This document shows, piece after piece, positions 31,075 to 61,600 of a stretch of 64,000 nucleotides of DNA. The translations under genes were made by a program, and so were the position numbers. The notes beneath the pieces were generated by a model. The model saw only the letters and a list, made by a program, of their open reading frames with translations, made no database searches and had not been told where the DNA came from. Each line of letters opens with the position of its first letter. Position 1 is the stretch's first letter. Location: positions 32,676,001 through 32,740,000 of the forward strand of contig OZ249436.1 of the NCBI GenBank assembly GCA_965235115.1, in the 5' to 3' direction. Origin of the DNA: Laetmonice hystrix (Eukaryota).

Positions 31075-34000
31075 ATGGCGCTCCCGCTTGAGGCGCAAGT
31101 GACAGTTTGTCGTAGAGTCAACGTGCTTGGAATGTTTTTCTGGTTTACTTGTTGGAAACGGTAAGCACTATATAAGCCAACGAGAATATTTAGTGTTGCC
31201 CGTAAATTACCGAGCAGTCATCCAAAGAGACAAACTGCAAACAGACATGTGAGCGCTTCAGTTCCCTATTATCGCTCAGCACATGCAGGCAATCATTCGG
31301 GATTCCCTCGGCCTCGGACATTTGACCGTAATGACGTCATTTACTTTCGAGTAGAAATGACCGAGGCCAGAGGGATTCCTGTCCATGCCCACTCAAACAA
31401 GCCAAAGTCTAACTGATACGAACGATTCGAGTACCGTGAGTACGCCTACGCTACGGTGGGGCGGGAGGGGGGCGTTGAATAGAAAAAAATGAGTGTTGTA
31501 CCATTGGCATTGCCGCATTGGCATTGCATTAGGCTAGCAATGGTAACATTAAAGCGATTAGGTAATATACTAGTCTAACCCAAAGAATTCTGCCTTCCTT
31601 AGCCTTAGCCTTAAGTTAGTTGTCACCGGTCACTGTGTAGTGTATGTATTAGACTCATGGACTATGGAATGTCGAAATTATTAAAGGAAATTGTACATTA
31701 TTTAGAGATGCAGCTTCTAGGGCCCATATATTGAGATTTTGTCTTATTCATACCAGTACCAGCAGGTATTTAACCATTTGTCAAAGGGCATATTATACAG
31801 GGGCATATACTCAGGGATGTGTGGGTGGGCGGGCCCGCCTGGCACCGATTTTAGCTGCCCAGCACAAAACTAAAACAGTTCAAGTGCCGCCCAAAAGGAA
31901 TTTTTATTAGGCCTATCATCTGATAAGTGTGTGAACATATTAACTTCTCATACGGTTTCTCTCATACCTTCTCTTGTTCATTCATACCAACCCACACCTC
32001 TTGCCAACTGAAACTCTTGTGCCTTTGCCTTGGGTGCTGGCCCCAAACTACCGCCCGGCACTCAATTTGTTCTGGGCACATCCCTGTATACTGTATACAT
32101 GCATTCTTGGTACGGTAGTGGTATTCGTGGGGATAAACTGCTTTGTCACGCATCAGTGATATCTCCTGTAACAATTAGGATAGAACATGATGAAAGGCAT
32201 CTGTATATGAGTCATAGCTACTGCGGTTGTGTTGAAAGCAGGGCATCTAAATGTAAACAGTATGTGTAACCTGGATTGTTGGTGTGTTTCAGTGGGAGAG
32301 GAAGGAGCAGTTGGCAGCCATTAGCTGGGATGAGTAGTGGGCAGTCTGACTCTGAGCCATGGAAACACTTCTCCTGGATGGCACAGTTTGTACCTGTGTT
32401 TGGTGTGAGAGGGGGCCAGGTGGAGGTCCTCACAAGCCCAACCCAGTTCTATCAGACCCTAAAGGTACTTTGTTTTATTATAAAATGTTAAACTTGGGAT
32501 ATGGATTTTTGGATCCACCTCAGACTGCCCTCCCACTAAGAAATGTCTAGCTAAAGCCCTGGAACACACTTGAAATTTACGACTTCGAGTTTAGTCGTGG
32601 CCCACCACCTGTGAATATCCTCCAGTGCCTATGTGTTTTAATGGTCTTTTGTAATAGGGAGCTCCATAACCTATTTATAGCTCAAGAGGGATTATCCCCA
32701 TTTTGTGGGCAGATTGGTCTTTGTGGTTGGGGGCATCCTCCAGGAAACCACCAGGTGGCATTATTTCCAAACACTAAGCCATTGTGCCACCTGGTGGTTT
32801 CCGTCGAAGACGGGTGCTTGGGATACTACCAATGCACTTAAACTAAAGTCCTCACAAATTATACATTTGATCTGGTGGACCATTCAGGTGAAACCACAAA
32901 AAGTACAGCTCAGGTGACCCCATTGTGATGTCGCTATTTGAACTAAATGCTGATTAAATTACCATCCACAAGGACAGGATAGGTACTTTGCTAGTATTAT
33001 ATAAATAAGGACTTGATTCGTGAGACGCTAGTGAGTTCCTATTGCTTTAAAAATTATCTTGAACCTGTTTTTATAATGATTGAAACTAGGTCCAAAAGCC
33101 AGTGTAACCTGGTTATTTTATGTTTATGTGGGGAGTGGTCCTTAGATTCTGATTCAGATTTTCAAAGGGGTCCATACCCCCAGTAACGTTGATTTAAATC
33201 TTGATGAAAGGATCAGGTACTCCCTTCAATAACCCTTCAATATTTATAGATTTCACTTAGCAGGCACTAAAAGATTTAAAGTGTTCATTTGCAATACTTC
33301 ACTGGTCTATATGCTGATCTATTTTTTAGGATGAAGCTTGCAAAGCTAAAAGAAGAATAGTTTTATCATCTTTGTACCTTGGAACTGGGAAGTTGGAAAA
33401 AGATCTGGTAAGACACAAAGAAACTATCAAAATGAACATATTATCGAAATAATCGAATCACAGATTTTGTTGCACAGATTAGCTTGAAGTTACCAATAGA
33501 ACCTAAAACAGGCTACCAACATGGAAAAATGTAAATGAGTCACTAAGTACTCTATAGTTAATTGCCACTTCGCATAATGTTAAAATACGAAATACTTTCA
33601 GGTGGAATGTCTGTATGCTGCTTCCAGGGATGTTCCAAACCTGGACATACAGATTCTCCTTGACTACACCAGGGGCTCGAGGGGAGGCGAGACATCATCA
33701 AGGACCATGTTATTACCTCTGCTCAGAGACTTTGCACCAAATGTTAGGGTAGCTCTCTACCACACACCAGATCTGAGAGGGATCTGGAAACATTGGCTTC
33801 CCGAACGTTACAACGAAACTGTCGGCTTGCAGCACATGAAAGTCTATCTGTTCGATGATAACCTCATCATAAGTGGGTATGTATGAGGGAGGGGGCACAT
33901 GGTTTTTAATATATTAATTGTAAGGAAATCTTACTCAAAACACTTGCTTTTTCCAAAAAAAAGATAACATTTGATGTCAGTGTGGGCCAGTGGTTTTCTT

Positions 34001-37000
34001 TGTGATGTTTTACAGGTAGCCTTTAAAATTGATGTTCAGTAAATGTTTTGAATTTCTGATTCTTTCAATTCTACATACCCGGTATTCACCTTGCCCCTAA
34101 CAGACCTTAGCTCTGAGTACTTGTACTCTACCTGCACTCTGTTACTAAATTTGAACTGGGGGTTGTAGCACCAAAGGCAAGGTGTGCAGTCAAAGTGCTA
34201 ACAGTGAGTCATAAAGTTTATACAAGAATGTTTTAAAACCTTTTGATTGTCTTAGCCTAAACTGACAAAAAAACAAACAAAACCTTTGATGCATTTCAGG
34301 ATTGTGAAAAACAGTTCACTCTCCAATGACAAGGCATGCTGCCAAATCTATTTATATACAACATGTTAGACATGAGCAGTCATCTGTGTGGTTTGTTAAT
34401 TCTTTGAACTAAGCGTTGTGGCAACTGAGCCAAGGTCATTAGTCAACTCTCAAGGCCCTAAAAAGTTGATCTGGGAATGTTCAAACACCTTGACTGTACA
34501 TCCTTCTCCCCAGTGCTCATGGTTACTGAGACCCACTGGTTGGACCTGGCAGAGTTACCAGTGACTACTTCTGGATGAGTGGGTTTGGAATCTCGCCTAG
34601 GTGAAGTATCAAGAGAAGCCGTAGTGAGGATTACATGGGTTCAAGCAGCTTTTGCTAACTTCTGAAAGCAGGCTTGTCTTAACACACTCCACTTAAGAGG
34701 ATTAGTGCACAAATGGCAGGGGGAACAGTCTGGATCATTACTAGAGATTGTGATTCATGACTCACAAAACCTTTCAGCTATGTAATCCCAAGAAATCCCT
34801 TCGAAGGCATTATTGTATGAAATTTGGTATGTATTTGCACTGTGACTTGATTAAGCTTTCTTTTAAATACATTGTAGAAATGCAGGGATATACATTGTAT
34901 TTATTTTTTTCAAAAAAGGACAGATAGACACTCGGGGATCCACCCTGGCGCTGGTTTTATTGATCTAAACTCACAGAAATGTCATCTTCGATAACTGCAA
35001 ATGTTCATTTTGGTAGTCGGCAAAAGGAACTGCCCAGTGGTGCAGCTGTCAGAGTTTGTAAAAGTCTTCAGGCAGCCACTCTCCTGCTATATAAAGGCTG
35101 CCAAGATAAGGCTATTGCCAATACTGCTGCCGAGAGATCAATATAAAAAATTAGGATAGGATAAGTTTCAAGGTAGCACATTTACTTTTTTCTTTTTATA
35201 AAGTACCATTCTTTCTGGTATACGTGACTGTATATCACTAAAAGCTCTACTCTTTGGTATCAAATATCACTTGACTACTATGCCCATAAGTTTTAACAGA
35301 GAAAGTCTGTACATAGGACCTGTATACATTTGGTTATTTTGTACCTCCAGGGCCAACCTCAGTGATTCTTACTTCACAAACCGGCAGGACCGTTACATTC
35401 TCCTGCGGAACTGTCGACCCATTGCAGATTTCTTCTCCAACCTGGTCCACACAGTGTCTGCCTTCTCCTTCCAGCTGAAGTCGGACAACACAGAAACTCT
35501 TGATGAAGGTCAAGATGTACACCCTTATGAAGGTAGGCATGATCAAAATTTACCTGTATACAAAGTTCAGCCCCACGGGTGCCTTTCTTCCCTACCATGT
35601 CCATTTAAAAATGACTGGATACAACCATACCTCCTCTTGGGACTTGGTAAGTTTTTAATCCTAGACAATCAACAACAAGGCCAGGTGGTAAGAGGGATGT
35701 AAAACAACAGGTTAATCTATGGATAGACCAAAAGTATTTGAGATGTACATGTAGTCATGACTGTTTATGGTCCTCGCCTTTCAGACAGCGATGGTGGTAC
35801 TCGGTTCAGAGAGGCTGCCAGGAACAAGGTTAAAGCTGCCCTTGATCCGCTAAGATGGACCGAAGTAAACAAGGAGAACGGCAGGCAGCCGTTAGCAGAT
35901 TGTGATGAGGACGGTAACCTTAGAGACTGTACTGATGGTAGTAAGGGGTCGGAGGATGAGGCTGTAGACACCTGGGTGTGCCCCATGGTCCAGATGATGC
36001 CATTAAACATTGACGTTGACCATCAGTTAACCGAGATGTTTCTCTGTAAGGCACCGACGGGATCCCGAATTCACCTGGCCTCAGGGTACTTTAATTTGAC
36101 AGAGAACTACCAAGATGTCATTGTGAACCGATCATCAGCTGTCTACGACATCCTCACTGCTGCGCCCGAGGCAAGGCTCTACTGGTTTATCGTACCAGCA
36201 TTTTCTTTTTTCAATTGCCTTTTTTCAAACCACTGTCTGAGCTTTTGTAACTTAGTGTTATCGTACCATTTGTCATGATGGGTTGGAGGAGCAGAAAAGG
36301 GAATGAAAGTTTAAGGCCGTCAGTTTTTTTTGTGGTAAATTAAGATACACAAATCACTTGCACATTGTAATTTGTTCACCTAAAGCACAAAATTAGCTGT
36401 TAATTGCTGTGTATATATCTAGACGTGTTGTTCAGGTATACTATCTCGGTACATGGCTTTGCACAAGCTGCAACTCTGTGTGCAAATAAAGCTTTCCTTG
36501 TACTGTCAGGATATATGAGTTCGTGGTAACTACAGTACATGACATCATATTTAACTTTTGCAGGCGAACGGTTTTTATAATGCAAGGGGAATTGCTGGCT
36601 CTATACCAGATGCCTACACCTACATAGCCAAGCAGTTCTTCAACACTGTCTGCACCAAGTGCCAACAAGAACGAATCACACTTAGAGAGTATACCCGCAC
36701 TGACTGGACCTTCCACGGCAAGGGGCTGTGGTGCTACTTGCCCGGAGAATCCAAGCCCTGCCTGACACTAGTTGGCTCCCCAAACTTTGGTAAATAATGT
36801 TATTTATACATGGATGGTATTTTTGTCAATGTAGGCTGCCTTTATATTAAAAAAGATTAAAGGCACATAGAATTTAATCAAAATGTGTGCAGGCTTATAG
36901 GGTTAAATATTTAGGAAATCGTACATATAAATATAGATGATAGTAAGAATGAGAATGTTACATTTAACATACCTAATAATAAAGCCATATATAATTTGTC

Positions 37001-38452: not shown

Positions 38453-41400
38453 CTACACGTCAAGCTTGATCTCTGCAGCTCCTGCTGACGGTTTGCTGGT
38501 GTAGAACGTTGCCGTTCCACCATACTTTGACTGAAACATAAATTCAAAGGATAACGTTATTGTTTGAGGTTAGATCAGTGGGGCTCCACGATTACTTAAG
38601 GGGTTTTTCAAAGCTACAACCAGATATTACTTGCACATAGAATTGAATCCTAATTTATTATTTTTAAATCACAGCTGCATTGAGTTGATGTAAATTTTAC
38701 AGTTTAAAAGCACCCTTCAAGACTTCTGGAGGCTTTTGTTTGAATAACATATTAACACAGTTAATATCGTTTCCAAGTGAAAGACATCCAGACTGCTGGC
38801 CAACACACATCAATTCCTTTACCACCTCCTTAGAACATACGTCCTACCTTCATTTTTTCCTTTGCATTTTCGACTGCATCAGAACGTACCAAGGTAACGG
38901 TACACCCACCAAAACCTCCTCCAGTCATGCGAGATCCAAAAACACCATCCACTTCAAGTGCAGCTGCCACCAACGTGTCAAGTTCTGGGCAGGACACCTC
39001 AAAGTCGTCTCTAAGTGAGTTATGACTTGCAACCATCAGCTTTCCGAAGGTGGCATAGTCTTCAGACTGAAGGGCAGCGGCAGCATCTTCACATCTTTTA
39101 TTCTCTGTTATGACGTGACGAGCACGGCAATATGCTAAGTCCTCTAGGACACTTTTCTTAGCTGTAAACATAGGGAAGCTAATTTCAGTAATAAATTCAA
39201 AAAGACAATCTTTCTTATCACCACCAAAATTTGGATCAATTATAATGAATCCATGATACTCTCAAACTTTTTATCAAAATGTACTATACTGGAGTATATC
39301 TTTCTATGGTGACGGGTGAGAAGAGAATTGTCACGATTTCTACATATTCTATTACAGGAACACATCGCCAAAATCCAAACTGCATTAGATTTCTTTTTTT
39401 TAATTATGACTTACTCTCCCAGAATACTGATCACCTTGCTATTTCAATACCTGTATCATTAGAAGCAACTCGGTGTATATCTAAACTCAAGTAGAGGTTA
39501 AGTCTGTATGAAGAATGTCTTCTTGCAAGATCATCAAGAGTGACAACTTTTATATTGGCATTACAAAGACGCCCTCACCATCAAGTTCTTCCATTGTTGC
39601 TTCACGAAGTGACTTTTTGCCAAGTTTGGCAGCTGTCTCATGGCAGTGTGTTCGTCGCTGAGGATACTCGCTTCCAGTCAGTTCATGGCGCACATTGGAG
39701 TTTGTGATGAGAATGACAACAGAAGGGTCCTGGAGAGGCACTGGTTTGCCTTCCATTGACCTGAAGGACATGAGTGGGATTCCGTGAAAGAATTGACTCA
39801 GTTGGTGAACTTATTCCACGGACTAGGTATACTAGGGAAACTTCCACAGGTAACTCTTACGTAAAATAATCATTAGATTTAGGGCAGGGGAACTTAAATA
39901 TGTTTGATCCTACCTGCAGTCTAATAGCAGGGCATGTCCCGTTTGACCCATGACAGATATAAACTGGTCCATGATTCCACACGGCATACCAGCATGAGTA
40001 TGCTCAGCTTTCTGACAAGCTAGGGCTTTCTCCTTCTGGTTGATCTGTCCAAAATCCCCATTCAGTGCCTCTATGAAAGAGTATGTAGCCACTTCCAGAG
40101 CTGCAGAACTTGAGAGACCCCCACCAAGGGGCACTGCAGAACTGATAACTGCATCAAATGATGGTACTTCTCCTGAAAACAAAACATGATTATCGTATCA
40201 GTACAGTGTTTCATAAGGTAAGGTATTAAATAAATGACAATTTTAACTTTGAAGGGGATTTTCCTTTTCAGTCAATCTTTTCAGCCTATTTTAGAACAGT
40301 GACCACCAGATGTCCCTTTCATCAGGCTCACATGCCCCTTTGGCATTGCCATGTGTTGGGGCATATAAATACTGAAAAATTATGATAGTCACCAGTCATC
40401 TTAATTCAAGCACATGTACCACTATGACTGTAGACTCATACTGCAGAAATACTGTATGGATATCAAATAGTGGAATTGATGCACATTTTCCTTTTCAGTC
40501 CTTATAGGGCCCCCTGGTGCCGAGTAGGGAAATTAAAGTCTCAGTCCATGAATGCTGCACTCTGAATTTTGAGATGAAACTGGTGTGGGTAAAAAAAAAA
40601 TATTAGGAAAACCCCCCAGTACATATTATCAACCAATGGTCAACCATTCATTTCAATTGAGGATTTATTAAAACTATTAAATGTATGGCAATTTATGTAA
40701 TTATTAGAGAATACTTTAAACAGAATAAATACACAGTAGAATCTTTACAAAGCAGATATCTAACAGACCCATGCAGTGACAAGCCATGGGTGACTGTTTT
40801 TACCTTTAAAGTGCACAAGGACACCTTTCACATAATTTGCCCAAGCAGGTTTGCCTGGCTCCAATGGTTTGGCCTCTGAGTGGAGGGGGAACTCCACATA
40901 TGTTGGACTATCTGCTCCCTCTGCCATAGTCATCAGACGACATATGCCTAATTCATTCTTGTTTCCAACAATAACAGTGGTCATGGACAGGGCCTGAAAA
41001 GATGTCAAACAACAAAGATTACCTCGGTGGTACGCTCCTGGTTTCCCCCCCCCTCCCCCCGGGCATATTTTTCTTAATGGGATATTTGTATCCCCCCTCT
41101 TCAGTCCTGATTCTGTTGTAACCATGGGACATTGCTAACCCTTTTAAAGCAGCAACTCCATCAATGCCATCTTAGTAAAATTGTCCCCTGAGTTTCTCCT
41201 ACCATCGCTACTATCCTCTATGTGGATACAATAGGGTGCAGGGCCGTAGCCTGGCCCAAATACGTGGGGGGGGGGGGGGGTAGTAGGCCTGCCACGTGTA
41301 GGGCATCATTGCGCTGGTCAAGCTGGCCCGGGGTGTGGGTTTAAAAAAACAAATAAAAATGGGAATCCCAGGGGGGCCAGCTGCCCCCTGCCCCCCCCCC

Positions 41401-43665: not shown

Positions 43666-46600
43666 ATGTCTGTTTCGGACCCGTTGATTAAACGTTTGAA
43701 AGGTAAGGTAAAACGCGTCAGTAACCAGCTAGGGGAACTAGCCAGTTAGGGGGAATTTCCACATATAGGGAGATTTCTCCCTATCAAGAGACTCAACAGA
43801 TCTGCCCAACTATTCCATTTAGGAAGTCTCCTGATCGGGAGAATTCCCTGTACAGGGAGAAAATCTCCCAATCAGGAGAAAATCTCTCAATCAGGAGAAT
43901 TCTTTTTTGACAATGGGAATGATGCTCTTCAAGGTCATTTTGATTTCAGACGAACTGTCCATCAAGCCCACAGTCATGCAGGGATCGTTTGGCGGTGAAA
44001 CTGTTTACTAGGCTTCTTTAAGTTACGAGATCATATACATCGTCAGGAAATGTCTAAAAGAACAAGATCATCGTGCACAATCCAGGAACGGTGTGAAACA
44101 GGACAGTTTAAGAGAATTTGCTCATCTATTATTCATGATGAATCTACAAACACTGGATTGGTAAATGTAAAGAAGGGGAAAAAACTAAAGAAATCCACCT
44201 ACAAAAAACTATTAGAAAATGGTATAATGAAGGAATGGTCTGTCTTCATTTGCCAGGCCTGTATTAAAAAGGTTGAAACAGGTAGCGGAGAAGGGAATCT
44301 CAATTCTGATCAAAGTGTCGAAATTGGTTCCACTTCCAGTGTTGAAGTGACTGATTCTCCCATGTCTACCGAGGAAGTTGATGACGGAGAACTGGAAGAA
44401 CAATGTGCTAAAGTTGGAGCAGCTCTTGCTGGCATGATTAGCAAAGATGTTGCTGCCTTGTTTAAGGATAGAAATAGGTGCAACGTTGAATGTTTGACGG
44501 ACTACAGTCCAAAGGTTTGGTTAAATCAGAGGCCAAAGGAACTGGTTAAACTTTTGCAGGCTTTATGTGGGAAAGGAAACAGTGACAAAAACGACTTTCT
44601 CATAGCAAAACTGATAGAACAGATTTACGGTATCAGGAATTCTAGACTAGTTTTGCCATTATCATTCAGAGAAAATTTGTTGGTCTATTCACTTTCTGGC
44701 AGCAAGACCCTTGTGGACTACATGGGTTCAGTGTCCCCAGCTGGGTCACATAAATACCTGTACCAATGGCTTGAAGCACAGGCAACCCAAGAAATCGAGT
44801 TCCCAACTGGTTTAGTGAGATCAGTTTTTGACAATGAACAAATCATTGGAAAAACACACAGTGTGAAAGCTGACAACAGGGTGCCACAGAGCATTATTAC
44901 AAGTCATGCATACCTCATTATTGACCCAAGCAATACGATGCAGAATGATGACAGTCTTTCACCACAGCACTGGCTATTCCTGCCCTTTTCTGTAGAGCAA
45001 AAGAGAAAGATTCTTCATTCTCTTGATGGAAATTCTGATTTTTTCAGACACACACGAGATATGTTCATTAATGCACGTTTACAGGAAGTTTGTGAAGAAA
45101 ATTCAGAAAAGTCTGACTACATTGATGAAATCCTTAGGCGGGAACAGCATGTGACCACTGTGAAGTACTGTGTTGAATGTGGTGCTGAAAATGATTACAG
45201 CTATCGGCTCTGTACCAATTGCCGAGGGCAGCTACGAAGGCAAAATCCTGAATACGATGATCTCTTACTTGAAAAAAAACCCAACAAAACATTTGCTGCA
45301 TTTCAGGACCATTGAAACACAGTCAAACAATACAAAGGTTATGGCTGGGGAACCCGATTTCTTGAATCCTAACAGCTATAACAATATAATCACTATCCTT
45401 CACAATATACTAGTATTTCATGTTCAGCAGGGGTCAACTCTTGAGCCTGTAGGCCTATCTCTACACCACTGCTACTACTACTCTCAGTACTCTGCACTAG
45501 AGAGTATAGAGTTAAGACATCTGGCTCATCTGCTTCAGATGGTTCGATTTGACCTCCGTTGCTCAGATCGTTCAACAGGCGTATCGCCAAAGCAGATTCT
45601 GGTTCCAATTCCATACTCTTTATCAGTCACCTGTAATCATAAATGTACAATAAAATTTTCTGTAGAACCATGATAATTCACTGCTGGACATTCAGCACTG
45701 GACATGGAAGATCCACAAATGTGGATAGGATGGAGTTGAGCTTTTACTTAGTGCGCATCTTGTTGGGGGGGGGGGGGGGGGGGTGTGCAAGACAAGGACT
45801 GCCCGAAAAAATGTTCTGGCAAAATTTTTTCCCAAGCCCCCAAAATAAATAATAAATAAACTTTTACTTTACCAACTGCTTGATTTTTACCTCAGGAAAT
45901 GCCCCAAAATATCAATTTGGGGGCCCCCTGCCTCTTACCGCTATGAGTGTAAAGCCCGCCGTACACTGTCACGACTTTGCCCAACTCCCGACTCCCGACT
46001 CCCGACTGACCACCGTACACTCTCCCGATTATCTGCTCCCGACCCATGCAGAGTGGGCGGCCATAGATCGGCACCGTAGTTGGGAGGTCATCCAGTTCAA
46101 CCCCCACTTGAATGCCCAGAAAGTGTTATTATAATCTTTCTAGCCTAGGTGATAATAGTGTGAAGACTAACTGCTCGACCTGTTTAGCTTTCATTGTCAC
46201 TTGTGACATCATAATAGTTAACTACGTATTTTGATACATAATATTACAATGTTTCACTGACAAAAAGGCTGTGGCGTCATAATGAGGACGTGCGGCAGAG
46301 CCGTGAAGAGAAGGCTTAGATCTAACGTAGACTGCACTATTTTGCTGTCTAGCTCTCGTTTTATCAACAGATGCATTAAAATACTATAGACACCGAAACT
46401 TCAAAGGTCAGTAGATATTCTCTGAAAATTATAGCATTATAATATCTGTGTAAACATCATTATAGGCCCCTGATCCTACACAGCTTCGATTGGCGCCTGG
46501 CTGTCTATTGTGATATTTAACGTCATTATCAAAGTTTTGGGAACTTTTAAATTTCCAAACAAAGCTCGCTGCATTCATAACTGAAAGGAGTCTCGCTAAA

Positions 46601-49600
46601 AGAAAGACATCTATGGAAACCTTACGATGTGGGGAAAAATTCTGGGTACTTTTTTGTATAGGTCGTCGCGACAGATTTTGCATGGCAAGACCTGCAAGGT
46701 AGAGAAGTCACGCGTTTTCAGGTTTTTTGTACGTTTTTGATGATTTTCGAATGGCCGTATGAAAAAGAATCCTTAAATCTATTTATTAAATTTTATACTG
46801 GACAAAAGCCACATATCTCTAGTTTCCTTTGCAATAATTTCAATCTGAATTGATTCATTGTTATTACCACCGCGAGCGTGTTTTGAAGAACCCAAGGTTG
46901 GAAAATCTAAGCTCAGTCGGCCGTAATCGGGAACCACGCTCGGCTCCCGATTCGTTTTTCGAATCGGCTACGATTTGCTCCAACTGCAGTCGGGAGCTGT
47001 CGGGAGCAGTCGGGAACCATGGTTACCGACTCGAGTTGGGCAAAATCGGGAAAGTGTACGGCGGGCTTAACCTCCTCACCACCTATTTGGAAAGGCATTG
47101 AAGAGAAATCCTTAAAATTCCTGGAGAAATTCACCAAAAACAAAATATAGCTAAGCCTACCCAACATGTACAGCCTACCCATGTTAAAGGGTCTACCTGA
47201 TAAGCAGCCAGTAGCGTTTTTTGCATATTAAAATTCTCATCATGTTCCTGGCCATGTTCCAGAACATCACACTGCTCAGGGACAACAAAAAATAACAATG
47301 AAAACATACGAGTCTGTTATTTACTGCTATAAATAACTGCAATAAATTTAATTAATTATAAATCCAAGCTTTATAACCTTCTAGAATGCAATGGGTTAAA
47401 ATAATCAAGGGCTGCCAACATCATGTCACTCCCAGCGCTGTGACAAGGCCATACTAACATAGGCCAAGCCGAGTTAGGTCTAGAGACTGCTCGATGCATG
47501 CGCCATCTTCAGGTGGAATGGGCCTGTGATTTAAATACACGTTGGCTTGTTTGTGATCGTCAGTGGAGGGCTCTGATCGTCATATTAGGCATCTTTGGAC
47601 TGTTTACATGTAGATCTGAGTGACACATTGCAACTGCAACGCAAGTGCAAGGCGGTCAGACTTCTGTGCTGTGGTGTGACTGTGCCTGTGGTAACATGAA
47701 TGAATGTCAATGTGTGCTCGCATTAGCTTTGTATAGATCCAGATCAGGCCAAGGCCAAGGGCTAACGTCAGTGCTAGGCCGGTAATGCCTGGCTATATAG
47801 TATATAGTATGTGCTGACGACCCCCCCCCCCCCCCCGCCTAAGCTAAGCCTAAGGCCAATGTTGTGGCAATCAATGGGGGGGGGGGGGGGATTCTGTATT
47901 GGCAGTTGGCACATGACATGGCTCAGACCTGCCAAATCTTTTTACCTACCAAGTGGGAGAATCTCCCACCTGAGGTAATCCCAAGCGGGAGATAATTCGC
48001 GGTGAAACGGTACCAGTGATCAAACATCTTATAAATACAAGTATTGATGGGGATCAGGGTTAGAAATTAGGCCCAAAAATCTGAGCCATCCGGGCTCCCA
48101 GAATTTGAAATCTGGGAGCCCGGCAAGAAATCTAGGGGCCCGGAATTTTACGACTAGTGAACAGGTGGGAAAACTTGGAAAAATTATGAAAACCTGCACT
48201 GCCTTGACGATATACTGCATTGGTACATTAGTAGATACAACTTGGCTGACAGCCGCAGTTAAAGTTGCACACTGACACAGGACAAATACCACACATATAC
48301 ATACATATAAAATTAATAATGCAGTGGAGTGAAATATAATGAAAAACTGGCAGGTAAGAAATCAGGGCATGCAAAAGTTTAAGTCATCCATGCAGAGTAT
48401 GACATTTCAATGCTGTGTTACACCGTCCAGTTATGAGTTGTAAAAGTGGATGGGTTTTATTAAAGTCATCTAAAATGATAAATTTATGTTTATGTTTCAG
48501 GGTTCATAAAAACATTGCGGACAGAACCTGACCTGATCAAGGACACTCACCCTGCTGTGCAGCCCTTCTGTGAAGTTCTTGAGCTCATCTTTAGAAAAGG
48601 CCTGAAGCGTAGGTTTCAGTTTAGTCAGTGAGATAAAGCCTTCAATACCGGTAATAGGAGGGTCTGTTTGTTTTTGTAGTTTTATCCACCAATATCGGAG
48701 GATAAACCTGAACATCGCTTTCCAAAAATAATCATGCATTTTGATGTTGAATGTAAAAGGTTTTGAAAGACAACCTACTGGTATAAAACATCTTTGGTTA
48801 AAAGTCTTGCAACATGCTTGCCTCTGAATACCAGTACTTACCAGAGTCAGAGATATCTGTAAAAACCCACTTTCCCTCACATAGAACATTTGCCCAGAAT
48901 CATTTTATGGATTCAGTGTTTCATGGAGGGTTTTTTGTGTAATGGGTGTAATTTTTGCCACCCCACCCCCAAAATACAGGATTATTATGTCTACCAGTTC
49001 ATTTAACTTTAATAACTTCCCAGGACATTAAAAATGTAGAGATGCTTCACCTCTTTCCCTACAGAAACATCCACATTGTTTGGACGAAGTAAAAAGGACT
49101 TTTGGAATTGGATAGAGGCTGTGTGTGACAACAATAACAACAATAATGAGCGGTAAGAAATTTTTTTAAGTTTTTGACCCAATTTTAAAGTGATTGCTTT
49201 TTCATTTTTTAGAGAAAGCGCTAGAATTGAGTAAATTAAAACATAAAGATATGAAATTTGTTCTGTTTCTCTTCTTTCTTTTTTTGTGTGTTTACATTTG
49301 TACAGTCAAACCTGGATAATCCGACATTGGACAATCTGACAAACTGAAGATCCGACAAGAATTAGCATGAAACCAACTGATTACAGTACATTTTGCTTGA
49401 CATATTGAACTTCAGACCCCAACACCTAATTCCCATGACCAAACATGCTAATCTGACTGTCAAAACACTCACTAATCCGACACTGACAATGACAGCTCTG
49501 ACAATGGTTATCACTCAACTGTTGAATTAACATGCAAGTCACACCTCCCGCCCCACAGTCATACCTCTCACCCCACCGTCACTCCTGCCCCACAGTCATT

Positions 49601-52600
49601 ACCTCTCACCCCACCATTGCACCTCCCGCCCCACAGTCATACCTCCCACCCCACCATCGCACCTCCCGCCCCACAGTCATTACCTCTCACCCCACCATCG
49701 CACCTCCCGCCCCACAGTCATTACCTCTCACCCCACCATTGCACCTCCCGCCCCACAGTCATACCTCCCACCCCACCATTGCACCTCCCGCCCCACAGTC
49801 ATACCTCCCACCCCACCGTCGCACCTCCCGCCCCACAGTCATACCTCCCACCCCACCGTCGCACCTCCCGCCCCACAGTCATACCTCCCACCCCACCGTC
49901 GCACCTCCCGCCCCACAGTCATACCTCCCACCCCACCGTCGCACCTCCCGCCCCACAGTCATACCTCCCACCCCACCGTCGCACCTCCCGCCCCACAGTC
50001 ATACCTCCCACCCCACTGTCGCACCTCCCGCCCCACAGTCATACCTCCCACCCCACCGTCGCACCTCCCGCCCAACAGTCATACCTCCCACCCCACCGTC
50101 GCACCTCCCGCCCCAGTCATACCTCCCACCCCACCGTTGCACCTCCCGGCCCACAGTCATACCTCCCACCCCACCGTCGCACCTCCCGCCCCACAGTCAT
50201 ACCTCCCACCCCACCGTTGCACCTCCCGCCCCACAATCATACCTCCCACCCCACCGTCGCACCTCCCGGCCCACAGTCATACCTCCCACCCCACCGTCAC
50301 ACCTCCCGCCCCACAGTCATACCTCCCACCCCACCGTCGCACCTCCCGCCCCACAGTCATACCTCCCACCCCACCGTCGCACCTCCCGCCCCACAGTCAT
50401 ACCTCCCACCCCACCGTCGCACCTCCCGCCCCACAGTCATACCTCCCACCCCACCGTCGCACCTCCCGCCCCACAGTCATACCTCCCACCCCACCATCGC
50501 ACCTCCCGCCCCACAGTCATACCTCCCACCCCACTGTCGCACCTCCCGCCCAACAATCATACCTCCCACCCCACCGTCGCACCTCCCGCCCCACAGTCAT
50601 ACCTCCCACCCCACTGTCGCACCTCCCGCCCAACAATCATACCTCCCACCCCACCGTCGCACCTCCTGCCCCACAGTCATACCTCCCACCCCACCGTCGC
50701 ACCTCCCGCCCCACAATCATACCTCCCACCCCACCGTTGCACCTCCCGGCCCACAGTCATACCTCCCACCCCACCGTCGCACCTCCCGCCCCACAATCAT
50801 ACCTCCCACCCCACCGTTGCACCTCCCGCCCCACAATCATACCTCCCACCCCACCGTCGCACCTCCCGGCCCACAGTCATACCTCCCACCCCACCGTCAC
50901 ACCTCCCGCCCCACAGTCATACCTCCCACCCCACCGTCGCACCTCCCGCCCCACAGTCATACCTCCCACCCCACCATCGCACCTCCCGCCCCACAGTCAT
51001 ACCTCCCACCCCACTGTCGCACCTCCCGCCCCACAGTCATACCTCCCACCCCACCGTCGCACCTCCCGCCCCACAGTCATACCTCCCACCCCACCGTTGC
51101 ACCTCCCGGCCCACAGTCATACCTCCCACCCCACCGTCACACCTCCCGCCCCACAGTCATACCTCCCACCCCACCGTCGCACCTCCCGCCCCACAGTCAT
51201 ACCTCCCACCCCACCGTCGCACCTCCCGCCCCACAGTCATACCTCCCACCCCACCGTCGCACCTCCCGCCCCACAGTCATACCTCCCACCCCACCGTCGC
51301 ACCTCCCGCCCCACAGTCATACCTCCCACCCCACCATCGCACCTCCCGCCCCACAGTCATACCTCCCACCCCACTGTCGCACCTCCCGCCCAACAATCAT
51401 ACCTCCCACCCCACCGTCGCACCTCCCGCCCCACAGTCATACCTCCCACCCCACTGTCGCACCTCCCGCCCAACAATCATACCTCCCACCCCACCGTCGC
51501 ACCTCCTGCCCCACAGTCATACCTCCCACCCCACCGTCGCACCTCCCGCCCCACAATCATACCTCCCACCCCACCGTTGCACCTCCCGGCCCACAGTCAT
51601 ACCTCCCACCCCACCGTCGCACCTCCCGCCCCACAATCATACCTCCCACCCCACCGTTGCACCTCCCGCCCCACAATCATACCTCCCACCCCACCGTCGC
51701 ACCTCCCGGCCCACAGTCATACCTCCCACCCCACCGTCACACCTCCCGCCCCACAGTCATACCTCCCACCCCACCGTCGCACCTCCCGCCCCACAGTCAT
51801 ACCTCCCACCCCACCGTCGCACCTCCCGCCCCACAGTCATACCTCCCACCCCACCGTCGCACCTCCCGCCCCACACTCATACCTCCCACCCCACCGTCGC
51901 ACCTCCCGCCCCACAGTCATACCTCCCACCCCACCGTCGCACCTCCCGCCCCACAGTCATACCTCCCACCCCACCGTCACACCTCCCGCCCCACAGTCAT
52001 ACCTCCCACCCCACCATCGCACCTCCTGCCCCACACTCATACCTCCCACCCCACTGTCGCACCTCCCGCCCCACAGTCATACCTCCCACCCCACCGTCGC
52101 ACCTCCCGCCCCACAGTCATACCTCCCACCCCACCATCGCACCTCCTGCCCCACAGTCAACATGCACTTTTAACACGTGTGCCTCATATTAAAAAAGTCA
52201 GGCCCCGACTGAAAGAACACTCTCATTCTGTTTTAATGCTCAGAACATGAGTAAAGTAGACTGAGCTTAATTAGCTCAATAGCCTGGGCATTTCACGGCT
52301 TTCCATGGTGTGACCTGCAGTCATGTCTGCCAAACAAATGAGACACTACCTTTTAGAAGCCATCAAGTTTATTGTCCAGGTTTGACTGTATAAGGAGGTG
52401 TGTTGTAGTCTAAGGCAACTTGGCTGACAAGGTTGTTGCCATGTCTCTTAGATAGTATCTCTCCTTGTTGTACTTCTGCTAATACCACATACCTGCCAAC
52501 CCTTCTGCATTCTGTGGAATCTAAATGGGGTATTCTGCACCCCACACTCAGAATATTACGGAACTACAAAATTTAGAGAACAATTGTACATTCACTCCAA

Positions 52601-55600
52601 ATCAATTTCTCACTAAGGCCAAGTTACATTTTTGGCAGTTCAGATCATTTGTGGGTGCTGCCATGTTTGTTTGTGGCACAAGGTTACCAGTAAATCAGAG
52701 CTTGACTATATAGGCCTACATGTCAGTCAAGGAGAGAGCGAAAGACAGGAACACAGACAAATATATATGGGGGGGGGGGGGGGTCCGATATATGTTATCT
52801 AGAGAAAATGCCAAAAAAAAACATATTTGCAAGTAGGATAGCAGGTTTATGGAAATATATTTTTTGTTTCAGAATCAATCCTATTTTCTCCATGGCAGTC
52901 TATACAGTCAGGTCTTCCAATAACGTATGTATAAAATGCCCTATTTTGTACTAGTCACAAGCAGAAGTCACAACCTTTGAGACATCTGCATGTAGCAATA
53001 TTGCTTGGCTCAGCTTAGAAATCCTAGAAATGTACTGCGATCTGGTGGCAGATTTTAGTATCACACACTGGAGGTCGGGTTGATAGGTCCAGTTGATTGT
53101 TCATTGGGAATGCTCATGAATCATAAAGTCTAGGCTTTCAAAAGACTAGGAATATTGAGATGCCTAAGAATCTGGTAGTACAGATATACTTTTTTAGCAG
53201 CTCATAGCAGGGAAGGCACTCCCCATAAAATGGGGATTGTTCAACAAGGCTGAAGTCAAAGAAATGCTCCATATTTCTCTTTTACTTGTAACTCCAAAGA
53301 AAGATCATTTTATGAGAAATTATGTGAATGATGAGTACCAGTAATACAGAAAAAATGCTCCTGGAAATGACCCGCCATCCCATTGTTAAACGTTGCTCTC
53401 CAAATTGATATGATACTTTCATTGTGTACGGCCCTTGTATATCTTATATGACACAAAGTCTGTTGACTTCCTAAAAGCCTTTTCTTGGCAGGAACCCCCC
53501 TTTAAAGATGTGGGTACCTCCTAAGTCCATAAAAAATTGTATGATGCCATGGTGCCAATATCGAGGTGGTCTTGTTCACATTAATAGGTGTACTTGCATC
53601 TACAAGATGCTGTACAAACACCTGCAGTAAAAGCAAATGTCTAGAATTTTTTGTTAGGAATAGGCATCCTCTCTGCTTCAAAAGTCCTTGTCTTGCCTAA
53701 AATGGACACAATTTTTCGACTGACATTGCTCTTATATGATAGTGTAAAGAGGTCCGAAATAAATATTCCTACCCTGGAAATAGCGTTGATTGGTCTGCAA
53801 TCAAGCCACAGGGAGCCCCCAAAGTGAATTTTGGTGTACACCGAAGACCGTACAGTAGAGGGGGCATGGCCCCAAGTGACCCCGTTGGAAGTTATGTCTT
53901 ATTCTTCCAATGGGGTATATTAGACGCATGCACAATGGGGATTTCCAGTAAAATCCGCAAGGCGGCAGCACTGTGCAGATTGGTCCTTGCTGGAGTACGT
54001 TAGCACAAGTTTAGATAGGACGGACGAAATGTGCTGTAGGATGACCTAACCTTATCATTACTAAATAATATTAACTCATATGGACAGAAGGGAATGCAAA
54101 AAGTCTAAAAATTGTCATACCTTTTTAGAACAAATGTCGGTATGTCAACCAGGCACAGATTAGCAGATATCAGCCTATCTAATTCTATGCTAAAATGTCT
54201 CCTCCTGAACCGCGTGCACAGTGCTGCCGCCATGCGGAAAAGGCGGCGACAAGGTTCCCCATAGAGCCCCTTCAATAGTAACAACAAATTAAGTTATATA
54301 TAGTGAATCCATTTTTATTGATGGAACAGGTGTGGTCAAATCAGGGAAGGGGCCGGCACTTCATCAGGGTGGCCCTTCAAAGGAAAACACTTTGTGTTCC
54401 AATAGAGATGTTAATGAAGAATGCCAGACTGATGGAGGTCAGTATACACCACTTGTGAAATGATATGTCAGTTTGAATAAGTTATATTTTACAGTATTGA
54501 TGGCAAACAACACATACAACCTACCAGTGATAGGGATGGACAGTACCATGCAATCTATGACGAAAACTAACTCTATTTGTTATACATGCTTGCCTTTCTC
54601 ACCTGTATTCAGAGACTGACAGTCATGTGGCTTAAAAAAATTATTCTTTAGTTGATTAACAAGAGTGATTCTAAGTGTTTTTTAATTACAGAGTTGGTAC
54701 AACCCCAGCATATCAATCATAGGAGATGAGATCCTCTGTGGTGAGCTTCCAAATACATTCTAGGAATCCGTTAAACTTGATAATTACCATTGCATAGACT
54801 TGCCAAAAGTAAAGTGCATCAATATAATTAAAGCACAGGAAACTTGTATGATGGCATGTTTATACCCGTGAAAGGCCCTTGCAAAAAAAAAACATTGCTA
54901 CAAAACACCTTTGATTGTTAAATTCTCTCAAAAAACATTTACAAGTAAACATAATATTTTTTCCAGAAATCTTGATGTCGCTCCTATTTGAAACTACAGA
55001 AATCAACTTCCAATTAAATGTTGATGTAAGTATGGGACAGTGGTAGCCACACTTTCTCCGTGTTGAAATAACAAAGTTCAGGACCAATCTTATAGCTTTG
55101 GGTCCAAAACACATCATGTTGTTACATGACTCGATCTGAACATACTGTTATACTACAGTCTGACAGTCATACTACAGTAAGACTACAGTCTTATGTACCG
55201 GGGTAGGTGGTCCTACATGATGTAAGTAGAAAATGTGGTACACGGTAACACAAAATTGTTCATATGATAGACATGGAGAACCCGTTCTATAATGGAAAGT
55301 TCTCCTAATCTCTTCTACACCCGTTAGATAGTTTTGGGAGGTTCAAATGTTATTCTTGCATCAAAATGCATGCATTTTTCAGTTTAGTGATCAGGGAAGG
55401 CAATCAGTTTCCAGGACAAATTTTAAGGGTCTTATTTAGTTTAATGCATATATGGTTTACTTTTCAGAATTGTTCCTTTCTTGACCAAACATGGACCATT
55501 CCGGTGAGTTTAAAGGGAACAAAAGATCATTCCGGTCACTTTACTAACCCTGGATGTAGAAATTTATATTTGCTTAGTAGGATTCATGGAGGATACTTTA

Positions 55601-58600: not shown

Positions 58601-61600
58601 GGATGGGTCAATGTTCCGGCCGATAGGAGAATTACTGCGGAGACTTGGCTCCGATGTCGCTTCCCTTCAGCAAGTGTTGGACGAGGAAGAAAGTCGCCGC
58701 CAAGGGTCTGGTCGCATCCCACCCCATGCCCAGCTTCCGGAGGACGAGTATGAAGAATTACCTGTACACAACGCTGAGGACAGGTAGGCCAACAGTCCAT
58801 CCTGCTAACTTCAGTTTTTTTTTCAAGGCAGCTGCTAACAGCAGCTTGTATGTGATGGCATGTTCTCTCTCACTTGGTTGTTGACAGAATGTCATGAGAT
58901 CAACTGTGTACATACTTCATGTATATTTATGAGCCCCACTCATACCTGGATCAAAATTTCGTAGAAATTGTTAACGTGGTCCAGGTGCCTTAAAGTTTGA
59001 TAACGTTTGGTAATGTTTGGTAATTGGATAGTTTTCAGACGGTAAATCATGATGTCAGTGATGCAGTAATATTTGTTATTAAAATGGATGCAATAACTGC
59101 TGGACTGATGAAGTTCTTTTGTCATCAAATTATATTGAAATTTACTCCAGATTATTTATGATCTGAGTGTTCATCAGGCAAGTTCAAATATCCTTGACTC
59201 TTTAAACAACACCAGTAATTACGTTTTTTTTATATTTTAGGGCCCAATATTTAGTGCAATGTATAGGAAAGATGGACATTGGCCAGGTGAGTTGTCATCG
59301 TGTGAGATTAAAGCCCCAGTCCCACCAAAGCCGATTGTACGATGTTTAATGCCGTTCTATCAAGATCTGAAATTTAGTTTACCGTAAGTCGTGATGAATC
59401 GTGATAAAATCATGACAACCCGAAGAGCTAGCTACGAATCTATCATGTTCTATCCCGACATCGGCCCGACCTTCCCGACAGCGCAACGACTAAAGCAACG
59501 TTCACTGCCGACCTATGCAGATTGAGCTTCGACCTCCCCGATCCCGGCCCGATGTATGGCGACCTATACCAAGATTGACAAACGATGTAGCAACGTTCTA
59601 TGCCGTGCCCCAGCCGAGCTACGACCTGTCCCGATGACATCAGGTCTAGATCAGGGCTAAAGCCCCAGTCCCACTAAAGCCGAATTAGCTACGACGTGTC
59701 ACGATCTGATAAATCGTGTAGAATCTGGAAAGGTCCTAACTCGGTCGTACAGTAGTCTTGATAGATAGATCCTCATAGGTCGGGATAGGCCACGATTGCA
59801 CCCCGACAATTTTAAACTGTTCAAAACAATCGGCATTGGTCGGGAAAAAGCTCAAATCGGGGATATACCGGAGGTCAAACGTTGCTCAGTCGGGAATAGT
59901 CGGGGGACAATCGGGATAGTTCGTTGTTCAGTCCTGGTTGATCGTAGGACAATCGCCAGACATTTCCTAGATCTAGCCCTGACGTCATCGGGACAGGTCG
60001 TAGCTCGGCTGGGGCTCAGACGGCATAGAACGTTGCTACATCGTTGGTGAAACATCGGGTCGGGTTCTTGATAGGACGTAGCTCAATCTGCATAGGTCGG
60101 CAGAGAACGTTGCTAAGTTGTTTCTCGGTCGGGAAGGTCGGGAGGATGTCGAGATAGAACATGATAGCACGCAGCGTGATCGTTGAGAGATCTTTGGAAA
60201 ACCGTTGCCCAGTCGCCGTTGAACGTGACAATCCGTAGCTAGGTCTTCGGGTTGTCATTATTTCATCACGATTCATCACGACTTAAAATAAATTTTAGAT
60301 CTTGATAGAACGGCATGGAACGTAGTACAATCGGCTTTGGTGGGAGTGGGGCTTAATTTTCTGGCAATTGTCCTACGATAAACCAGGACTGAACAACGAA
60401 CTATCCCGATTGTTCCCCGACTATATTCCCGACTGAGCAACGTTTGACCTACGATATAGCCCCGATCTGAGCTTTTTCCCGACCAATGCCGATTGTTTTG
60501 AACAGTTCAAAATTGTCGCGACCTATGAGGATCTATCAAGACTACTCTACGACCGAGTTAGGACCTTTCCCGATTCTACACGATTTATCAGATAGTGACA
60601 CGTCGTAGCTAATTCGGCTTTGGTGGGACTGGGGCTTAACATTGCTTTATATCTACTATTTACGTACATTTTGAAATAATCGTTTTTGACATTTCTGTAC
60701 TATGATGCCAGCTTAATAATTCTTATTTTAGCGACTCAGATTTATGAAATCTTTGTGCCACATAGAAATCTCCAAGGTACCAGTAGTTTACACAATCCAA
60801 TTGCCAGTGGGATTTTAATTTTATGCTGTCAAAATAATTTCTGAACTCAGGTATTACAGGTATAAAGAGGTATTACTCCCTAATGGTGTTGGACATGGCT
60901 GACTGACAGAGTTCAGCAGGAGAAGGGCCTGTGCTGCCACATAGAATTGATGACTCTACTCTGCTCAAATTTCATTTGTCCAGGATGGAGGAGTTCACAA
61001 AGTGGAGGGTGCAGTTCACCACCAGATGGCCGTAACCAAGGACGCCACTCCTACGGTAAGGTCAATTAGGCCATTCATGTTTCCTTAATACCGTTGACAC
61101 ACCAAAAACGGTTTTGTTCAATGCGCTTCGAACCGCATTGAATCCACATATGGATGTGGTTTGGGTTCAATGCGATTCAACCGTGTTTGGTGTGTCGCGA
61201 ACCGTATCAATGCAAATTGAAGCCCTTTGAAGTGCATTGGAGCGTCGGTGTGTCAATGGTATTATACAAGTTGTACCCAATAGGAAAGCTATCATTACTT
61301 ATCCTTATTTGCTTCAAAATAATCCATGAAAAACATAAAGAGAGAAGCATACTCAGGCTTGAACTCCATCACCCGTTCTTGGTTGTTTTCTTTCAACTTT
61401 GGTACGAGGTGTGGCTAAGAATGTAAGCTTTTTTATGGAATGAAGTGTCATAGGCACTCCCTGTGTTAATGCAAACAGATGAGAAAGAGGTGGAATAGAT
61501 GCAGAAATTTCCTCTTGACATCGAGAAAGGACTGATGAGTCCCATGGTTTTAGCGATTTAAAATATATGGGCGGGAAACTATGCACGTGTTATATTATTT

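Follow-up and report, generated by a model that had tools for sequence, protein, structure and literature searches.

The 40-bp minisatellite described here is very probably cargo of a larger dispersed element. It lies in the window, a 64,000-nucleotide stretch of Laetmonice hystrix DNA (contig OZ249436.1) whose numbering is used throughout. The proposed mobile unit and its parts are summarized in Table 1. The element is probably of the Helentron type (HINE/DINE-1-like), an assignment made with less assurance; a 13-bp inverted repeat 4 nt and 51 nt from its ends and a T-rich site give it a HINE-like layout.

Table 1 Features of the proposed mobile unit and its host (window coordinates).
Feature	Position	Strand	Remark
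Left TA of host MITE	49301..49302		
Host TA-flanked MITE, left part	49303..49528	+	left TIR from 49303; 241 bp in total without the insert
Host right TIR, inner part, severed by the insert	49516..49528	+	
ATT at left junction	49526..49528		repeated at 52371-52373; 4 bp (ATTA) in second haplotype
Proposed mobile unit, non-coding, HINE/Helentron-like, 2.84 kb	49529..52370	+	about 3 bp of uncertainty at the ends
Left AACATGCA, first 8 bases of proposed element	49529..49536	+	
5' subTIR overlapping 8-mer and first unit	49533..49545	+	12/13 to reverse complement of 52307-52319
Minisatellite	49537..52158	+	40-bp unit of two 20-mers; indel variants mostly at left end
Higher-order duplication within array	50259..51815	+	717 identical bases, offset 840
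Right AACATGCA, inside proposed element	52159..52166	+	
Variable spacer	52159..52273	+	115 nt at this locus; one sister contig has 71 other letters
Multi-copy block joined to array ends in other contigs	52274..52320	+	bin depth 12-21 times single-locus depth
3' subTIR	52307..52319	+	overlapped by short stem 52311-52323
3' tail ending in TTT	52321..52370	+	common to one sister contig
Host right TIR, outer part, and right TA (52389-52390)	52371..52390	+	19/20 to left end

The host is an older TA-flanked MITE of 241 bp, whose right TIR is divided in two by the insert. The outer part of this TIR matches the left end at 20/20 positions if 52374 is read with the base of the second haplotype. On the inner side, 49520-49528 agreed with the reverse complement of 49318-49326 at 7/9 positions, both mismatches being transitions, and this fit was equalled by 0.11% of window positions; leaving out the shared ATT, the fit was 4/6 (3.2%), and in situ it was 0/6. 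This apparent continuation of the host TIR to the left of 49529 was found post hoc and is tied by one other scanned site; taken alone, it would be a modest indication. The site is T-rich, with TT at 49527-49528 and TTT at 52368-52370, and the ATT/ATTA at both junctions fits either a T/T insertion with junction ambiguity or a 3-4-bp duplication. The segment 52167-52370, which had been taken for the right half of the host MITE, is most likely part of the array-bearing element.

The minisatellite itself was confirmed by TRF as a real 40-bp array (2,622 bp, 65.6 copies, 95% matches). Its unit is a dimer of two 20-mers, 16/20 alike, and the minus strand is G-rich, with 253 runs of at least three G. 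Both array ends read AGTC in the same direction; the original prediction that the array begins and ends in the same phase is correct in the 20-bp register but not in the 40-bp register, because the array start precedes one half-unit and the array end precedes the other half. It was also right that the array has no coding sequence of its own, as three long plus-strand frames are merely the stop-free unit. When 17 chosen ORFs from this region were compared with Pfam, nothing exceeded a curated cut-off, and a PDB search with a nearby exon gave no match. The flanks had been described as unlike the unit, and apart from the subterminal inverted repeat that spans the left 8-mer/array edge this holds, no flank segment being among the best local alignments. 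Derivation of the unit from the host MITE TIR (11/12 match) was rejected, because neither host TIR was among the unit's best alignments in the window, and stitching of the whole unit from local templates was not supported by local alignments.

Contrary to the prediction of no terminal inverted repeats, a 13-bp inverted repeat with 52307-52319 (12/13) is formed by the first 9 bases of the array together with the 4 bases that precede them in the left 8-mer. This was the sole other match in 64 kb at one mismatch or fewer, where 0.13 were expected, and 0/100 shuffles gave as many as 2 matches. Haplotype 2 has one further change in the 3' subTIR, at 52312. The spacing of 4 nt on the 5' side and 51 nt on the 3' side depends on element ends defined by the split host TIR and by the stop of a sister contig at 52370, the 5' end coming from a single locus. 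The stem at 52311-52323 has 4 bp here and 6 bp with the letters of the sister contig. In the 3' tail, a weak stem of 5 bp with a 12-nt loop lies at 52324-52345, and the 3' hairpin energy (52321-52373) was a weak -2.0 kcal/mol. At the other end, no 5' IR stem-loop with the subTIR was predicted in 49526-49580 (0.0 kcal/mol).

Related copies were found in contigs from 3/3 runs, all of one sample, possibly the window's own source; depths given for contigs are whole-contig means and not copy numbers. In a high-depth contig (501, 241.5, and 503.8 in the three runs; 7-14 times single-locus), 21-22 letters of the array end (52158), matched at a threshold of 80% likeness, are joined to 52274 onward. 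A second contig (depth 50, 38, and 57) has 48-61 array-like letters, 71 other letters, and then 52271-52370 at 89/100, and it ends at the very position at which the outer TIR of the host starts. By hand arithmetic, approximately 193, 63, and 227 of extra depth at 52305 was not covered by those two contigs. The block 52274-52320 is present in at least two other contigs, this multi-copy evidence covering the right end of the element only. Because the array end is linked to the block elsewhere and one contig matches up to 52370, the mobile unit appears to extend about 210 bp past the 8-mer. The high-depth contig, whose identity was inferred from depth sums, appears to diverge at 52320 into at least 255 unlike letters; most copies therefore may not end like the 52370 tail here.

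Unit variants also point to arrays elsewhere, as 6/7 motifs tested in the contigs occur 0 times in the window array. The array depth was 73-285 times that of a single locus, a value not taken as copy number because it is inconsistent between runs and overcounts. In 1/3 runs, one contig has 87 letters before the matched piece and 253 after it, indicating that other array contexts exist. It continues into the 8-mer and 13 further bases, with 8 differences in 84 letters, mostly unlisted, and this run-on is weakly indicative of an 8-mer internal to the family. The foreign unit variants, together with array ends tied to the same downstream block, support the prediction of a dispersed, mobile sequence. 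No empty allele was seen, both haplotypes of the one sample appearing to share 52137-52311. Neither another copy's 5' end nor an autonomous partner was observed. Self-BLAST of the 64-kb window found no second copy of the unit, the host MITE, or the block 52274-52320, and metagenome scans with this block and with the unit gave 0 matches each.

The layout was compared with published accounts of Helentron-type elements. In mite HINEs, subTIRs of 12-15 bp lie at a distance of 2-4 nt from the 5' terminus and of 38-60 nt from the 3' terminus; T-rich sites, tandem repeats in some, the lack of a 5' IR, and an unmodified target are also described (PMC4067079). The present element resembles HINE-Mo/DINE-1 in its 13-bp subTIR (12/13, within the 11-17 bp of HINE/HLE2), its asymmetric 4/51-nt spacing (within 2-4/38-60 nt), its T-rich target, and its tandem repeats; it is also interspersed, multi-copy, and non-coding, as seen at its right end. 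It differs from the described elements in its weak 3' palindrome, in the 3-4 bases repeated at the junctions, in the 8-bp direct repeat bracketing the array, and in an array that starts inside the 5' subTIR. This last feature, a start inside the subTIR and not between modules, counts against the HINE reading. According to Thomas, Vadnagara and Pritham (2014; PMC4067079), HINE families share subTIRs and their subfamilies differ in the last 60 bp; a difference of this kind could account for the other tail seen in the high-depth contig.

The Cg_HINE elements of the Pacific oyster have dispersed arrays between modules, subTIRs mostly with one mismatch, and a TT preference (PMC7492417). The dispersed array, the single subTIR mismatch, and the variable segment beside the array recall them (PMC7492417, Vojvoda Zeljko et al. 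2020), whereas their monomers, chosen in the range of 100-500 bp, number on average at most about 5 to an array, with 29.3 in the longest, compared with 65.6 x 40 bp here. Their variable segment lies 5' of the array and the spacer here 3', and the 5' IR and microsatellite given for Cg_HINE were not found (PMC7492417); at the element's 5' end, neither a microsatellite nor a separate IR of the DINE-1/Cg_HINE subtype was present. The HLE2 elements described with HELIANO, such as Xenopus HelenXT233, have inverted repeats of 12-16 nt, a 3' stem-loop, and T-T insertion, and in one HLE2 family the left end is present twice, as a direct repeat (PMC11417382). This double left end is a precedent for a recurring 5' terminus, although only 8 bases recur here.

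In the Helentron-type reading, a Rep/helicase made elsewhere would recognise the subterminal repeats, single-strand rolling-circle transfer would copy the element into T-rich targets, and whatever lies between the repeats, including the array, would be carried along. The first unit holds 9/13 subTIR bases, from which we infer that the unit arose out of the 5' end of the element itself; the array may have grown from 20-mers to 40-mer dimers, followed by duplication of an 840-bp block in place. A distinctly unlikely extension is that the left end and the satellite were born together in one fold-back copying event at this 5' end. Such an event would have duplicated the first 8 bases and created the 5' subTIR by inverted copying of the 3' block, leaving behind a 20-bp seed that holds most of the subTIR. 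The array would then be an amplified transposase-recognition end, G-rich, made by and spread with the element, and its length would possibly tune mobility.

The 13-bp inverted repeat could instead be the TIR of a cut-and-paste element (MITE/foldback type) with an internal array, a 3-4-bp duplication ATT/ATTA, and a 50-nt tail carried along, which we consider unlikely. The direct repeat of 3 bp (4 bp in haplotype 2) at the junctions and the end of the high-depth match near 52320, where the inverted repeat ends, agree with this explanation. There is also a precedent in Tetris, a non-autonomous DNA element of foldback type with internal tandem repeats (PMC4079207; PMC7492417). On the other hand, the inverted repeat is not terminal, the second contig has the tail in common up to 52370, no duplication surrounds 49533 and 52319, and the ends 49529 and 52370 are not mutual inverted repeats. 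In contrast to Tetris, the element here has no long foldback arms, and its array is on one side only.

The array is directly flanked by an exact pair of AACATGCA, which bears out the predicted 8-bp direct repeat; the A that opens the right copy is also compatible with the array unit. Among 200,000 random position pairs with a slack of ±3, an 8-bp direct repeat occurred in 0.10% and a 7-bp repeat in 0.35%. The pair had been read as the mark of a staggered cut of 8 bp at which the array was inserted in one piece. As the main event this was not supported, because array ends in other contigs go together with 52274-52320, with shared sequence reaching 52370, and because the right TIR of the host MITE is split at 49528/52371 and not at the 8-mers. 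The pair is probably not a scar of array insertion. Under the Helentron-type reading it would then be an internal direct repeat, in which the element's first 8 bases recur after the array; the repeat (about 1e-3 by chance) is not accounted for by that reading. The duplication may date from the origin of the seed in the family founder.

It seems very unlikely that a free minisatellite or seed entered an earlier 212-bp insert (52159-52370), at a point 8 bp inside it, through TPRT or reinsertion of a circle and thereby gained an 8-bp TSD. The exact repeat at both array edges, the unit variants found elsewhere, and the other array context of the 1/3-run contig agree with such an event, but at least two other contigs, which differ in their spacers, also have array ends joined to the downstream block 52274-52320, the subTIR straddles the supposed TSD-array junction, and the run of the 1/3-run contig into the 8-mer and 13 bases fits, weakly, a family-internal 8-mer. 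Target-primed reverse transcription in particular found no support: an outer TSD and an RNA-derived head are missing, no poly-A tail was seen in the sequence, and Rfam and tRNA searches gave no match. A repeat inserted in this way (SINE, SVA-like, LINE tail) was also rejected because multi-copy sequence passes the right 8-mer.

There is likewise a low probability of birth by repair, in which a 3' end at the left 8-mer folded onto TGCA (52316-52319), copied 9 bases in reverse, gained letters, and re-annealed 8 bases upstream. This one event would yield the 8-bp duplication, the inverted repeat, and a seed, after which the seed expanded and the segment spread. Both repeats would be accounted for in a single step, and short fold-back inverted insertions are described at yeast breaks (PMC11724301). 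TGCA is self-complementary and present in both repeats. Against this, 11/20 half-unit bases lack a local template, the spacers of other copies differ and the 8-mer was not demonstrated in them, and dispersal is not explained by the event itself, so that a carrier is needed anyway.

DIRS-type elements show trinucleotide identity at their junctions, and the ATT identity here and the at least 255 further letters past the block in the high-depth contig agree with a non-autonomous tyrosine-recombinase element (DIRS/Crypton-like) or a 5'-truncated minus-strand retroelement with the array as its tail; either is highly improbable, as LTR-like or split repeats, a coding remnant, and an RNA family are absent and the array-to-block spacer varies among copies. 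hAT-type MITEs have an 8-bp TSD with TIRs directly inside. Such an origin was rejected, as the 25 longest of 65 inverted repeats listed included no pair at 49537/52158 and the two AGTC ends have the same direction.

If the proposed reading is true, the element would add to the examples of tandem arrays spread by rolling-circle elements, the array in this case being a long G-rich 40-bp minisatellite. It would also warn against taking every short direct repeat at the edges of an array for an insertion scar. Array capture and array generation by carriers are two scenarios discussed for Cg_HINE (PMC7492417), and if the unit did arise from the subterminal repeat of the element that carries it, this would bear on the choice between them.

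Two TA-flanked inverted repeats enclose the array and define a host MITE; they were alike at 19 of 20 bases, and the outer right repeat became a full match (20/20) with haplotype 2. Inward extension of the match in place failed at all six bases, and the match picked up to the left of the left 8-mer, where 49520-49528 agreed with the reverse complement of 49318-49326 at 7 of 9 positions, both mismatches being transitions. This agreement was equalled by 0.11% of window positions (3.2% without the shared ATT), and the weighted 13-base score of the continuation was tied by one other scanned site. On the right, the sequence shared with a second contig ended at 52370, directly before the outer part of the host repeat, and removal of 49529-52373 restored a MITE of 241 bp. 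Therefore, we concluded that the insert spans about 49529-52370.

The original prediction held that the array had no terminal inverted repeats of its own. However, a pair of 13-bp subterminal inverted repeats (subTIRs) was identified in the insert, matching at 12 of 13 bases with no other match in the 64 kb; 0.13 matches were expected, and none of 100 shuffles gave two. Four nucleotides separate the 5' copy from the 5' end of the insert, which follows TT, and 51 separate the 3' copy from the 3' end (TTT). PMC7492417 assigns the 13 largest clusters of dispersed arrays in the Pacific oyster to non-autonomous Helentrons (HINEs), whose subTIRs often differ by one mismatch. The insert resembles HINEs in its subTIRs, their spacing, its dispersal and its lack of coding sequence, and it likely belongs to them and probably acts like one. 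For the 3' palindrome of HINEs, the insert offers weak stems, one of 5 bp around a 12-nt loop and one of 4 bp overlapping the repeat, extended to 6 bp with the letters of a sister contig; for their lack of a target-site duplication (TSD), it has ATT at both junctions (ATTA in haplotype 2), which would fit either insertion between T and T or a duplication of 3-4 bp. The 5' inverted repeat and microsatellite of DINE-1-type elements were absent, no 5' hairpin was predicted, no Rfam family was found at E <= 1 in 49200-52500, and the window contained no tRNA. A cut-and-paste element that duplicated 3-4 bp is an unlikely alternative; most likely, the insert is a non-autonomous Helentron-type element.

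The array measured 2,622 bp by direct parsing, and TRF reported a single 40-bp array for the locus (49538-52159, 65.6 copies, 95% matches). Two 20-mers, sharing 16 of 20 bases, make up its dimeric unit, and the majority of indel variants lie at the left end. From 50259, 717 identical bases are repeated at offset 840, reflecting either recent growth of the array in place or an artefact of assembly. As predicted, copies of AACATGCA flank the array directly, and the array is non-coding, its long plus-strand frames being merely the stop-free unit. The "same phase" proposed for both ends holds in the 20-bp register only; in the 40-bp register, the start precedes one half and the end the other. An 8-bp repeat occurred in 0.10% of 200,000 random position pairs with ±3 bases of slack (7-bp, 0.35%); chance is improbable for any single given array, but this feature was selected from many windows of the genome. 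The 8-mers had been read as the TSD of a free mobile minisatellite. The subTIR crosses this supposed TSD-array junction, and a later insertion there would not be expected to yield a subTIR straddling it; we regard that reading as improbable.

Contigs of three runs from one sample were aligned to 52095-52760 (64 array letters and the right flank); the results concern the pieces and loose ends listed, and depth is a whole-contig mean, not a copy number. The single locus had depths of about 48, 15-18 and 65-71. Two haplotypes differed at 6 sites within 63 bases (52312-52374), a high local heterozygosity; no empty allele was present in this single sample, both haplotypes appearing to have the right end of the array. 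In all three runs, a contig of depth 501, 241.5 and 503.8 joined 21-22 array-end letters (to 52158) to 52274 onward, and its match stopped near 52320 (depth sums at 52317 and 52319). A loose end of at least 255 unlike letters was listed there, which we infer to belong to this contig; inspection of the loose end by eye shows a perfect palindrome of 10 bp at 17 nt past 52320. The second contig consisted of 48-61 array-like letters, 71 others, 52271-52370 at 89/100 and 147 unlike letters; its depth was close to that of the single locus in two runs and twice as high in the third. Extra depth at 52305 (about 193, 63 and 227 by hand arithmetic) points to further short matches. Seven motifs of unit variants from loose ends and between-joint letters were tested; six were absent from the window array, and the seventh was its own left-end variant. 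In one run, array-like letters of one contig continued across the 8-mer to 52179; the 84 letters contain 8 differences, most of them not itemized, and give a weak indication that the right 8-mer lies within the family's own sequence. Within the window, neither unit nor flanks had a second copy. An origin by fold-back repair is as improbable as the free minisatellite, and one through recombinase or retro elements is very improbable.

The window is animal DNA containing spliced genes. The array locus would lie in the intron after the exon at 48501-48608, whose RUN identity was unconfirmed in Pfam and PDB searches.

Features of the window in order of position
Feature	Positions	Strand	Observation
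Dynein exons	1127-30807	-	many; translations taken as axonemal dynein heavy chain
Unit-like match	31401-31500	-	closest outside array, 17/19 bases; probably chance
Synthase-like piece	35742-36278	+	presumably phosphatidylglycerophosphate synthase, by translation
Galactokinase-like exons	38830-41134	-	presumed from translation
Open frame	43999-45315	+	438 codons; weak zinc-ribbon matches near end (DUF7577, E 2.7e-4, below cut-off); possibly transposon-derived
Apparent spliced exon	48501-48608	+	RUN-domain-like by translation
Host MITE repeats	49301-49320, 52371-52390		TA-flanked
8-mer copies	49529-49536, 52159-52166		border the array
subTIRs	49533-49545, 52307-52319		inverted
Array	49537-52158		40-bp unit
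Stem	52262-52278		6 bp; left arm in variable spacer, right arm = start of shared block; may mark a template switch
High-copy repeat end	52488-52522		depth up to 30,907 in X1 (>600x single locus); many loose ends, both sides
Second multi-copy piece	52648-52738		depth about 600-990 at 52647-52669
G run	~52768-52783		adjoins second multi-copy piece
Inverted-repeat structure	59311-60637		1.3 kb; arms 79-87% alike; foldback- or MITE-like

Here, we propose a model of the Helentron-type element drawn from family knowledge. A Rep/helicase supplied in trans would recognize the subTIRs, the element would be transferred as a single strand into T-rich sites, and the cargo between its ends would travel along; PMC11417382 describes insertion of the HLE2 group between T and T. 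The unit contains 9 of the 13 bases of the subTIR, which makes it probable that the array arose out of the 5' end of the element itself. The 8-mer pair would then be internal to the element and may have originated as a duplication in the founder, through a switch of template back onto the 5' terminus, or by chance. HelenXT233, for which the same paper reports two left ends in direct repeat, offers a precedent for a recurring 5' terminus. Of the predicted dispersed mobile minisatellite, the dispersal stands, given the other contigs, whereas the boundaries of the first reading were probably wrong and would shift from the 8-mers to those of the insert; the minisatellite is real, dispersed and probably moved by a carrier of an already known kind.
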